The translations under genes and the position numbers were made by a program. This document shows, piece by piece, positions 24,445 to 27,563 of a DNA stretch of 64,000 nt. Position 1 is the first letter of the stretch, and every line of letters begins with the position of its first letter. Below the pieces are notes generated by a model. The model was not told where the DNA came from, made no database searches, and saw only the letters and a program-made list of their open reading frames with translations. Origin of the DNA: Phycisphaerae bacterium (lineage in GTDB: Bacteria; Planctomycetota; Phycisphaerae; UBA1845; Fen-1342); NCBI GenBank assembly GCA_050115495.1, contig JASFQK010000011.1, positions 64,001 to 128,000 on the forward strand, read 5' to 3'.

Positions 24445-25380
24445 ATGACGCGCTGCTGCGGGCTGCTGCTCCTGCCTGTCCTGTTGCTGGGCCTCGCCGG
24501 CTGCACCGCCGCCGGTCCCCGCCCGCTCACACCCGTCGAGCAGGCCGTCGCCGACGCCGCCCGCCCCATCCTCGAAATGGACCCCGACGCCGTCTGGACC
24601 GACTGCTACAACCGCCTCGTCGACCTCGCCCCGGCGAGCCTGACCTACCTCGCCGAGCAGCCGGACTTCTGCCACCCGGCAGCGCCCGACAGCTTACCGG
24701 TCCTGACGCACACCTCCCTTGTGCGTCTGCTGATTCAGCCGGGCCTGCGGCCTGCGGTTACCGCGACCTGCCTGGACACCAGCCTCGACGTGCTCTACTT
24801 CGACCTCAAGGTCGGCGGTGAGCGGCTGGGCACGCCGCTGCTGGCCTCGCCATCCCCGCCCGCCACGTGGCACGAGCTCTACGCTGGCAAGTTCGATCAC
24901 CATCTAGCCGGCCGAATCGACGTCGAGGCCGACCGCCAGGTCTTGCACCGCTGGTGGCTCGAAAACCGCGATCGGGCGTCGCTCGTCGCCGAATGCCGCC
25001 GGCTGCGCCCGCAGCCCGAGCCGCTGTGGAAGGTGTTGTCTCGTCGGCCGGCCGACCGCTGGGAGTATCAGCCGGAGGTCCGCGCCGTCCGTTGTTCGAC
25101 GCAGGCCGAGCCGGTGATGATTTCGACCGTGACGTACGACTACAATCTGGTCCGAGCGACGTGCATCTGGCTCGGGGCGAGCGGTCGACCCGACGTGCGC
25201 GAGGGCCTCATCGGCCTCGTCGCCAGTCCCTCGGCCGTCATCGCCCATAATGCCCTGTTCTCGCTCGCTTACGTGCCGGACGAACGCATCCGCGACGTAT
25301 TGCGGCGGTACAAGGAAACGCAGGGGTTCCGCCCGCGGTCGGAACCCGCCGAGCCCCGCGCGTCGACGATGCGAACCTGA
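24445..25380 (+). CDS. Hypothetical lipoprotein with HEAT-like C-terminus
   Basis: Lipobox LAGC; helical C-terminal repeat. Confidence 0.65.
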   Translation: MTRCCGLLLLPVLLLGLAGCTAAGPRPLTPVEQAVADAARPILEMDPDAVWTDCYNRLVDLAPASLTYLAEQPDFCHPAAPDSLPVLTHTSLVRLLIQPGLRPAVTATCLDTSLDVLYFDLKVGGERLGTPLLASPSPPATWHELYAGKFDHHLAGRIDVEADRQVLHRWWLENRDRASLVAECRRLRPQPEPLWKVLSRRPADRWEYQPEVRAVRCSTQAEPVMISTVTYDYNLVRATCIWLGASGRPDVREGLIGLVASPSAVIAHNALFSLAYVPDERIRDVLRRYKETQGFRPRSEPAEPRASTMRT

Positions 25381-25440
25381 ACGCAGAGGAGCAGGCGGGC
25401 GGCGCATGGTTCACCGCCCGGAGGCAAGGGAGTGCCACGC

Positions 25441-26160
25441 ATGAAGTGGATGCGACTCGCCATCGGCTCGGTCGTGCTCGTCGGCACGGCTGTCTTCGTC
25501 GCCGTCCAGTTTGGCAGCTACGAGGTCCGGCAGCTCCAGCAGGAAGTCAGCCGCCTCGAGCAGGAGCGTCAGCAGCTGCTGACCTACGCCCGACGCCTCT
25601 GCGCCTCGCGTCGCGTGGCCCAGGTCGACGTCGTCCGTCAGCGCGAAGACCGCGACGGCCGCACGATCAGCACCTTGCTCTGGCAGGAAATCGGCGCCGA
25701 CGGCACGCTCGGCAAACCGCTCGCCCTCGAAACCATCGGCCGACAGGTCTACTTCGAGGCTCTCGTCATCAAGTTCGACCCGGAGCTCGTCAAGGAGGGC
25801 GACGCCGAACGCGGCACCAGCCTCGCCATGTTCCGCCGCATCTTCGGCGATCGGCAGGCTCCCGAATCCGTCGACGACATCGACCGCTCCGCGCGCCCCC
25901 CCGTTCTCACCGGCGATGCACCCGCGTTGCACGACGAGTTGTGGGAGCGCTTCTGGGAGTTGATCGACGATCCCGAATTGGCCGCGAAGTTCGGCGTGCG
26001 GATCGCGCAATGCGAGGCCCCGTCTGTCCTGTTGAAGCCGAATCAGATCTGGGAAGTCACGCTCGACGCCGCCGGCGGTCTCAACCTGCGCAGAATCGGC
26101 ACGCGCGAGTCGGATGACGGTCACGTGTCCGCGTGGCCGGAGAGCCGGACATCGCCATGA
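25441..26160 (+). CDS. Hypothetical membrane-anchored coiled-coil protein
   Basis: N-terminal TM helix, Gln/Glu coiled coil, then a globular domain; GGAG RBS. Confidence 0.72.
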   Translation: MKWMRLAIGSVVLVGTAVFVAVQFGSYEVRQLQQEVSRLEQERQQLLTYARRLCASRRVAQVDVVRQREDRDGRTISTLLWQEIGADGTLGKPLALETIGRQVYFEALVIKFDPELVKEGDAERGTSLAMFRRIFGDRQAPESVDDIDRSARPPVLTGDAPALHDELWERFWELIDDPELAAKFGVRIAQCEAPSVLLKPNQIWEVTLDAAGGLNLRRIGTRESDDGHVSAWPESRTSP

Positions 26161-26212
26161 ACCCGCGGATTGGGAGCGATTCCGCAGCGCTGCGGACGCC
26201 AGACGTTAGCGC

Positions 26213-26326
26213 AAAAAAAGAGGGCGGATGTCGGTGGGCGCCGGGGGGAAACGCCACAGCCGAGCATGCCGCCCAGCGAGTCGCTTTCAAACCGGGGGGA
26301 GGGGAGGTCCCCGTACAACGACTCTC
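26213..26326 (-). ncRNA. Candidate small RNA with two C-rich-loop hairpins
   Basis: Upstream sigma70-like promoter; hairpin GAGUCGUU..AGCGACUC with ACCUCCCCUCC loop; second hairpin with UUUCCCCCC loop, then U7. Confidence 0.62.
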
Positions 26327-26359
26327 TAGGGAATATACCCTAGATTTGACTAGAATCAA
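26326..26359 (-). promoter_or_regulatory. Promoter of the candidate sRNA with an overlapping palindrome
   Basis: TTGATT-N16-TATATT; the -10 box sits inside CTAGGG-N6-CCCTAG. Confidence 0.55.
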
Positions 26360-26573
26360 TAGCCCGCGTCGAGAATGTTTGCAAAACGCACATTCTCACT
26401 GTAACTCGTTTTCACAAAGCTGTTTAAATTGTCCGTCCTAACGTCGGGAAGCGGACACTCCCTGTCTCATTAACTGCATTTCACGAACGGATGGCACGAG
26501 CAGATGCTCTAAGCCGAGGCACTCTCTCGCGCACTCTCTGCGCCCGTGGCGACACTGCGCAACGTGTTCGATC

Positions 26574-26602
26574 TGGACGCACCCGAGCGAGCGCGGTATA
26601 TT
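26574..26602 (+). promoter_or_regulatory. Promoter of tRNA-Tyr
   Basis: TGGACG-N17-TATATT. Confidence 0.5.
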
Positions 26603-26678
26603 TCCCGTCTCGCTCCTAAGGGGCGACGACAGCCGCACCGACCAGTATGGCGGGACGGCTCCAGGCCGCAAACCCGAT

Positions 26679-26761
26679 GGGCGTGTGTCCGAGTGGCCAA
26701 AGGAGACGGGCTGTAAACCCGTTGGCTTACGCCTACGGTGGTTCGAATCCACCCGCGCCCA
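26679..26761 (+). tRNA. tRNA-Tyr (GTA), CCA not encoded
   Basis: Acceptor GGGCGTG/CGCGCCC plus A discriminator; anticodon arm ACGGG-CTGTAAA-CCCGT; long variable arm; GGTTCGAATCC T-loop. Confidence 0.96.
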
Positions 26762-26774
26762 TTCGAGAACCAGC

Positions 26775-26814
26775 AGAGGCACCGGCGACGGACCCGCCGG
26801 TGCCTCCTCTGTTT
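26775..26814 (+). terminator. Hairpin/terminator downstream of tRNA-Tyr
   Basis: gaggcaccggcg/cgccggtgcctc stem followed by ctctgttt. Confidence 0.55.
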
Positions 26815-26849
26815 GGCCGCGTCGCGGTCGTCATTTCGGAGGAGCGGCG

Positions 26850-27563
26850 GTGAATCTCCACGATTTCCAGGCTCTCACCTTCGATTGTTACGGGACACTG
26901 ATCGACTGGGAAACCGGCCTGCTGAACGCTTTGCGCCCCTGGACGCAGCGCTGCGGGCTGGGGGCCGCTGACGAGGATTTGCTCACGGTCTTCGGCGAGC
27001 TCGAGCCCGCCGAGCAGGCCGCCCGCCCGACAACGCGATATCCCGAGATTCTCCGAGCTGTCCTGGCGAAAATGGCCGCCCACTTCGGCGTCGACGCGAC
27101 TGTCGACGAACTGGCCGCGTTCGGCGAGTCCGTCCGCGACTGGCCGGCGTTCGCTGACAGCCCGGCGGCGCTGGCCAGCCTCAAGGAATCCCACAAGCTG
27201 GTGATTGTCTCGAATATCGACCACGCATCTTTCGCCCACAGCGCCCGGAAGCTGGGTGTGGCGTTCGATCTGGTCATCACCGCCGAGGATGTGGGTAGCT
27301 ACAAGCCGGCCCCGGGGCACTTCACGGCGGCCCTGGCGGCCCTCGCGGATCGCGGGATCCCGCGCGAGCGCGTCCTGCACGTCGCCCAGAGCCTCTTCCA
27401 CGATCACGTTCCCGCCAAGGCCCTCGGCCTGCACACGGTGTGGGTCAATCGAAGGGCCGGCCGCTCGGGCAGCGGCGCCACCCGCACTCCCGACGTGGTC
27501 ATCCAGCCTGACCTGGTTGTACAGACCCTGGCCGAGCTTGCCGCCGCCTGTCGTGTAGCGTGA
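26850..27563 (+). CDS. HAD-superfamily hydrolase (haloacid dehalogenase type II-like)
   Basis: TFDCYGTLIDWE, SNID, YKP and HVAQSLFHD motifs; GGAGG RBS. Confidence 0.92.
   Translation: MNLHDFQALTFDCYGTLIDWETGLLNALRPWTQRCGLGAADEDLLTVFGELEPAEQAARPTTRYPEILRAVLAKMAAHFGVDATVDELAAFGESVRDWPAFADSPAALASLKESHKLVIVSNIDHASFAHSARKLGVAFDLVITAEDVGSYKPAPGHFTAALAALADRGIPRERVLHVAQSLFHDHVPAKALGLHTVWVNRRAGRSGSGATRTPDVVIQPDLVVQTLAELAAACRVA

Follow-up and report, generated by a model that had tools for sequence, protein, structure and literature searches.

The window, by which we mean the whole stretch of 64,000 nucleotides of Phycisphaerae DNA that was analysed, carries a candidate small RNA element on its minus strand, between a hypothetical protein gene (25432..26160, plus strand) and a tRNA-Tyr(GTA) gene (26678..26762, plus strand). 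The protein gene is convergent with the element and has no Pfam match, as is also the case for the protein gene at 24445-25380 (plus strand). It is a conserved convergent neighbour in seven loci, only of the subfamily to which the window element belongs. The tRNA gene, with a promoter-like site at 26574-26602, is divergent from the element, as a first-pass annotation made from the letters alone had described, and a divergent tRNA-Tyr that serves as a synteny marker is also present in the orthologous loci. The two divergent promoters are separated by a 210-nt, comparatively AT-rich spacer (26360-26570), which contains a short direct repeat (26402-26418 and 26471-26487) and an inverted repeat (26371-26397).

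The promoter proposed by the same annotation, TTGATT-N16-TATATT on the minus strand, is present at 26359-26332. Its -35 box (26354..26359) is the same hexamer in four of the five genus relatives that were aligned or read, and its -10 box (26332..26337), 16 nt away, represents a family-wide motif found in 87/107 members; transcription is predicted to start near 26326-26325. The interval 25800-27000 contains two promoter-like sites, compared with 0.2 in shuffled sequences. A palindrome without strand assignment lies across the -10 box (26325..26344), is identical in genome G005 and looser in G004 and G001, and is a possible operator at the level of the genus. It occurs as a single copy in this genome (G000), which rules out an operator regulon. 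A second, imperfect palindrome covers the -35 box (26346-26359), and the two palindromes are possibly a repressor site.

Downstream of the promoter, two hairpins and a U7 tract (26213..26219) follow on the minus strand, base for base as first described. Hairpin 1 (26278..26324) is a variable 5' leader hairpin, delineated by fold and accessibility, whose loop ACCUCCCCUCC (26308-26298) and stems match the earlier description; its loop in the best fold reads CC-U-CCCC-U-CC and not six C in a row. Hairpin 2 (26222..26274) has 21 base pairs and scores 79.7 bits with the covariance model of the family. Its 5' arm carries four single-base bulges and its 3' arm is unbroken. In the minimum-energy fold two U-G pairs close the 11-nt loop of the earlier description to an apical loop UCCCCCC (26243..26249), which has an unpaired probability of 0.92-1.0 and is the predicted seed. 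With the U tract behind it, hairpin 2 is predicted to double as an intrinsic terminator. The fold of the 115-nt RNA has an energy of -51 kcal/mol (z -3.24, with 0/200 shuffles as good), and the opposite strand of the same region gives z -1.44. Hairpin 2 alone (z -3.85) carries the folding signal of the whole RNA; hairpin 1 on its own does not fold better than its shuffles (z -0.28, 65/200 as good). A 92-codon frame starting with TTG overlaps the element and is stop-free in only 2/11 orthologous loci, in agreement with the initial judgement that there is no credible ORF.

Comparison with relatives separates the two hairpins. BLAST against 40 relatives gave nine matches at E <= 4e-15, all confined to hairpin 2 and its U tract, and an alignment of 12 orthologous loci shows little or no variation in the TG of the -35 box and in hairpin 2. 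The intervening 30-60 nt have no sequence relationship among these 12 loci; leaders between promoter and hairpin 2 often fold into some hairpin despite this. Even members of the genus do not share hairpin 1, and a run of at least five C is present in only 8/107 leaders. Since the leaders are unrelated and so few have such a run, the anti-Shine-Dalgarno-like loop 1 is peculiar to this genome and not a property of the family. The first-pass annotation had seen two C-rich loops of this character as a pair; both loops are there, and as a pair they are not conserved. As far as sequence comparison reaches, the conserved unit is hairpin 2 alone: a bulged stem of about 55 nt with a U-C6-9 loop, followed by a U tract. 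In the subfamily next to tRNA-Gln, the hairpins average 92.5% identity, between the 95.6% of the adjacent tRNA-Gln and the 49% of the leader, and one 55-nt hairpin of this subfamily is letter-identical in eight genomes of eight genera.

Covariation, which had been suggested as a check in related genomes, was observed. Among 93 distinct sequences, in an alignment fitted to the structure, 20/21 pairs change on both sides and 86% of the cells form pairs, compared with 62% for shuffled and 33-43% for slid sequences; on a plain MAFFT alignment of the 12 loci, 5/21 pairs covary. A C run of 6-9, nearly always after U, is found in 88/88 distinct hairpins, members having been chosen partly on the C run. 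More unpaired bases lie on the 5' arm in 87/88 (mean 5.4 vs 0.95), a count that leans high, as the covariance models favour the 5'-bulged shape. Close to the loop, 78/93 retain a U-G pair. Stem sequences differ freely between subfamilies, and the stems turn over while the C run persists at 6-9 nt; this freedom in length suits pairing with G tracts.

The distribution of the family was examined through three rounds of covariance modelling, with model R3 behind the order and class counts and 12 weak matches (L088, L119, L129, L130, L134-L141) left out of all member counts. Within the order sample, R3 found the hairpin in 79/151 genomes at E <= 0.01. It is regular in families f1 (31/32), f2 (32/32), f3 (6/7), f8 (1/1) and f9 (4/4), and rare or absent in f4 (0/2), f5 (0/5), f6 (1/32), f7 (3/32), f10 (0/1) and f11 (0/2); the three f7 matches are plain terminators, which leaves a true order count of about 75-76/151. 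The class sample gave 59/151 genomes at E <= 0.05, including f23 (14/14), f12 (17/19) and f18 (2/2), with several families empty and some matches weak. No strong match was obtained outside the class in the phylum-wide sample. Seven weak ones (E 0.005-0.017) comprise five plain terminators without a C run and two with C6-7 loops and a U tract. The latter type is seen in other planctomycete classes at L380 (G429) and at L377 (G425, on the opposite strand to the match), and L380 has a basal stem in common with the f18/f23 subfamily plus an extra branch. R3 did not retrieve a candidate in G321, whose order yielded 2/41 matches, weak and terminator-like.

A pattern scan of GTDB genomes returned 89 loci, 80 of them with titles. 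All 67 loci whose title is Phycisphaerae, Phycisphaerales or a broader planctomycete label reach 43-73 bits; the 13 other titled loci stay at or below 23 bits, and 8/9 untitled loci score high. On account of these record titles we take the class to be Phycisphaerae. No phage or plasmid record covers 80% of the hairpin, and viral contigs gave 0 and 5 pattern matches with a best score of 23.2 bits. The genome of the window has three copies (the window locus, C20:5913-5986 and C17:38108-38181), and other genomes have one to five matches each. G004 has five in all, and its locus L263 consists of two tandem copies about 245 nt apart (G004:C33:2628-2699 and 2872-2944). Subfamilies occupy different fixed sites, for example divergent from tRNA-Tyr or downstream of tRNA-Gln(CTG), and the family as a whole occurs in six or more unrelated neighbourhoods, where the genes may have either orientation. 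No protein neighbour is common to more than 17 of its loci.

Several features suggest that the hairpin belongs to a gene of its own. A sigma-70 motif, TTG-N16-19-TAnnnT, occurs within 100 nt upstream in 87/107 members compared with 162/2140 shuffles (7.6%), and on the opposite strand in 6/107, with an antisense promoter downstream in 3/106. A U tract follows the stem in 93/107 members, compared with 4/107 on the opposite strand; the members are related, and neither the promoter nor the U-tract counts are independent trials. For 27 of the 87 promoter-bearing members about 10 nt separate the end of the -10 box from the stem, and the RNA predicted for these is therefore the hairpin with its U tract, about 65 nt.

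Metatranscriptomes give an unstranded hint of transcription. An unstranded contig of 213 nt is exact over 26062-26273, that is, over the end of the convergent gene and hairpin 2, and stops at the edge of that hairpin; it is compatible both with a minus-strand RNA that is processed and read through and with the 3' end of the mRNA from the convergent gene. A 153-nt contig of a relative from another metatranscriptome, also unstranded, starts 12 nt before its hairpin. Run X1 contains four exact full-length pieces in 19.9 kb, one of them the 213-nt contig over hairpin 2, a coverage too sparse to rank expression and one in which the gap over hairpin 1 carries no weight. Conservation, covariation and the promoter and U-tract motifs support a self-contained RNA gene, conserved and structured, whose exposed loop is rich in C and which falls in no Rfam family. 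It is likely to have a sigma-70 promoter of its own and to be transcribed as a small RNA of about 115 nt here and about 65 nt in the shortest members.

The Rfam scan that had been suggested for the element placed it in no catalogued kind. Rfam 15 gave no family at the locus, where the best overlap was a chance score for mir-1641 (24.6 bits against a cut-off of 104), and none at 20 loci of the family. Housekeeping RNAs were rejected as identities. The 6S-like RNA of the genome lies elsewhere (L021, G000:C30:61478-61662) and scores 45.7 bits, just below the Rfam cut-off of 46.4; the small SRP RNA is likewise elsewhere, on C4 (51.3 bits); and a bacterial Y RNA was discarded with no Ro60/Rsr (TROVE) match in this genome, which is 92% complete. 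Neither Rfam 15 nor the literature consulted yielded a described Phycisphaerae sRNA family, and the supplementary motif tables of large screens could hold one.

What the conserved loop would recognise is suggested by its pairing energies. Together with a G6 model site it reaches -14.5 kcal/mol, whereas AGGAGG-type sites give only -4 to -5. As pairing with G6 is so much stronger, the loop is better described as anti-G-tract than as anti-Shine-Dalgarno, and the character first assigned to it has to be given up. The hairpin 2 loop opens at almost no cost, and its exposed U-C run is the one feature that never changes across the family. We consider it reasonably probable, from this analysis, that the element acts in trans through pairing of the U-C6-9 loop with G runs in mRNA leaders, in the manner of RepG, 6C and sX13.

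Under this reading a single hairpin would be both terminator and seed, as in RepG, and the U-C6-9 loop would pair in trans with guanine runs in mRNA leaders. Where such pairing falls near the ribosome-binding site, translation would be blocked without Hfq. Following what is generally known of antisense RNAs and of RNase III, the bulges of the 5' arm would weaken the long helix, so that pairing started at the loop could spread or cleavage by RNase III could be avoided. Having different promoters, the paralogues would bring one seed under the control of different signals. In this genome the variable leader, hairpin 1, adds a second C-rich, partly anti-Shine-Dalgarno loop.

The closest parallel is RepG (HPnc5490) of Helicobacter pylori, which is described as pairing through a C/U-rich terminator loop with a homopolymeric G run in an mRNA leader, its second stem-loop alone being sufficient for repression through the G run (PMC8295292). 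Like RepG, the element combines a variable 5' part with a conserved last hairpin that has a U-C loop and a U tract. Two traits expected of a RepG-like RNA are found in the family: the C/U loop sits on a terminator hairpin, with a U tract in 93/107, and the 5' part appears dispensable, as 27/87 promoters leave almost no leader. Unlike RepG, it comes from a different phylum, has no Rfam match at the locus, is multi-copy and has a long 5'-bulged helix. Long G runs in leaders are also rare here (six runs of 8-9 G in 100-nt leaders), unlike the situation for RepG, and for this reason phase-variable repeat targets are not evident.

6C RNA (RF01066) is described with two conserved hairpins, each with at least six C in its loop (PMC1950547), and as 6C/B11 of Actinobacteria it is reported to pair with G-rich leaders without a chaperone (PMC6486639). 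The element resembles it in that covarying stems carry loops with at least six C and that the genome is high in GC and Hfq was not found in it, and differs in having one conserved C loop where 6C has two. The 6C model gave no match at the locus (E <= 10) or in this genome (E <= 1), a search in which the control copy from Corynebacterium also fell below the 47-bit cut-off. With one conserved C loop and no match in the genome, membership in 6C was rejected.

Elsewhere in the family the U-C run is doubled. Twin hairpins occur at five loci of f12 (L246, L255, L257, L258 and L259), as RNAs with two C7-9 loops and a U tract, and four of the five can be aligned to the Rfam 6C model along its entire length, with scores of 31-36 bits that stay under the 47-bit cut-off. 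The twin form is a 6C-like RNA outside Actinobacteria. Three f3 loci (L260-L262) carry a second UUCCCCCC (C6) inside the 5' bulge of the hairpin, and hairpin 1 at the window locus may be another gain of a second C run.

sX13 of Xanthomonas is described as Hfq-independent, with C-rich apical loops that act on G-rich motifs near start codons (PMC3771888). The element is like it in length (about 115 nt) and in its C-rich loop, and unlike it in that sX13 has three stem-loops with 4-5 C; there is no Rfam match at the locus. RNAs of the cuckoo family (CcsR1, RF02791; ar14, RF02344) are reported from Alphaproteobacteria with CCUCCUCCC in each of two to four loops (PMC4615179), and their C-rich loops on variable stems and several paralogues per genome are shared by the element. 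The likeness to cuckoo RNAs drawn in the first-pass annotation does not extend to membership, as the loops are U-C6-9 without CCUCCUCCC, neither ar14 nor CcsR1 matches at the locus, and all 67 titled member-scoring records are planctomycetes, not Alphaproteobacteria. We conclude that this is a real and apparently undescribed family of sRNAs, whose functional kind is known and whose form, with one hairpin, is unusually reduced.

Candidate targets were sought with our own gene calls for this genome (4362 genes). G6 occurs near the start of 39/4354 called genes without evident common function, and G5 near the start of 97 genes without a common theme. G runs are not avoided on the sense strand (618 G6 and 549 C6 runs in coding sequence, 90 and 75 in leaders), and dnaB, a target of 6C, is without a G run in this genome. 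Three G5-bearing ribosomal or transcription genes, rplW, nusG and rplN, were tested with 16 neighbouring genes in 29 relatives. The G5 of rplW and that of nusG are each kept in 1/23 genomes. That of rplN (L306, G000:C24:23527-23916; orthologues L285-L314) is kept in 11/24 genomes of carrier families and 1/6 non-carriers, the 24 including G007, G008 and G011, not themselves tested for the RNA, and G016, which has only a cut-off copy. A G5-G6 run lies at the rplN ribosome-binding site in 7/7 genomes of the genus, 4/12 elsewhere in f1, the family to which this genome belongs, and 0/5 of other carrier families; the other 18 genes keep a G run in 4/406 (carriers) and 0/100 (non-carriers). We regard rplN as a weak lead, just as likely to be an ordinary Shine-Dalgarno variant, and no conserved mRNA target emerged among the genes tested. 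As for structural RNAs, no G6 is present in 58 tRNA and tmRNA genes or in the 16S stretch scanned, and the 23S gene was not located. Two proteins of this genome (G000:C2:2346-3917, 523 aa, and C30:65749-66864, 371 aa) carry a putative Rho-like motif.

A possible, if unlikely, alternative is that the RNA is real and binds protein, the bulged helix and poly-C loop being a dock through which it titrates or scaffolds an RNA-binding protein. Rli31 of Listeria would be the model, since it is described as a C-rich-loop RNA that pairs with an mRNA leader in vitro without regulating it (PMC4959528) and whose C-rich loop is bound by SpoVG (PMC4959528). The element likewise is a long hairpin with a C-rich apical loop; unlike it, Rli31 has a separate terminator hairpin, and SpoVG was not found in this genome. 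The near tRNA-level identity of the hairpin (92.5% vs 95.6%) is more than pairing alone needs and favours a bound protein, as do the hairpin identical across eight genera, the U-G pair kept near the loop, the lack of an mRNA target in our search and the bias of unpaired bases to the 5' arm, itself partly built into the models. Yet no protein gene accompanies the family, searches of the genome, which is 92% complete, found no Hfq, Ro60 (TROVE) or SpoVG, stem sequences vary freely between subfamilies, and the C run is variable in length and recurs in other structural contexts. We retain this reading at that level because of the Rli31 precedent and the tRNA-like conservation.

It is much less probable that the element is a cuckoo-like RNA with two anti-Shine-Dalgarno loops, broadly damping translation through occlusion of ordinary ribosome-binding sites. 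Loop 1 is open, contains ACCUCC as does the 16S tail of the genome, which is the usual CCUCCUUU, and reaches -9.7 kcal/mol in pairing with a AAGGAGGU model site; upstream of the called starts there is a peak of GGAG-type sites, which is partly circular as the choice of starts rewarded them. A weak match in f6 (L280, G118:C39:57141-57233) has a CUCCUCCUCC repeat loop with a similar basal stem and U tract. Against this, relatives have no loop 1, pairing of the conserved loop with AGGAGG is poor, and CCUCCUCCC is absent from the loops, with no ar14 or CcsR1 match at the locus. L280 itself is a true anti-Shine-Dalgarno form in a family otherwise without the RNA.

That there is no separate RNA and the hairpins merely terminate the convergent gene, which ends at 26160, or stabilise its 3' end, an alternative that the first-pass annotation had itself raised, is least credible: the 213-nt contig that stops at the hairpin edge does fit a plus-strand 3' end, a second role that hairpin 2 may have, but the U tract and the promoter motif are on the minus strand, the neighbourhoods are unrelated and of either gene orientation, and neither a fixed C loop nor identity at the level of a tRNA would be required for termination.

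Trans pairing with G runs is the favoured reading. A more ambitious version of it, which we regard as doubtful, is that a minimal riboregulator of about 60 nt, combining terminator, seed and protein dock, would be the main sRNA system of Phycisphaerae and work with a non-Hfq protein, the twin form being kin by descent to 6C and the C6 hairpin a cross-phylum module. If true, this would account for the tRNA-like conservation through a non-Hfq RNA-binding protein. The family itself is a defined, class-wide and multi-copy sRNA candidate with a covariance model and a predicted seed, and its natural variants (single loop, twin loop, loop plus bulge) form a ready structure-function series. If the pairing reading is true, Hfq-independent recognition of G tracts, as in RepG, 6C and sX13, would extend to planctomycetes, and about 60 nt could suffice for it.
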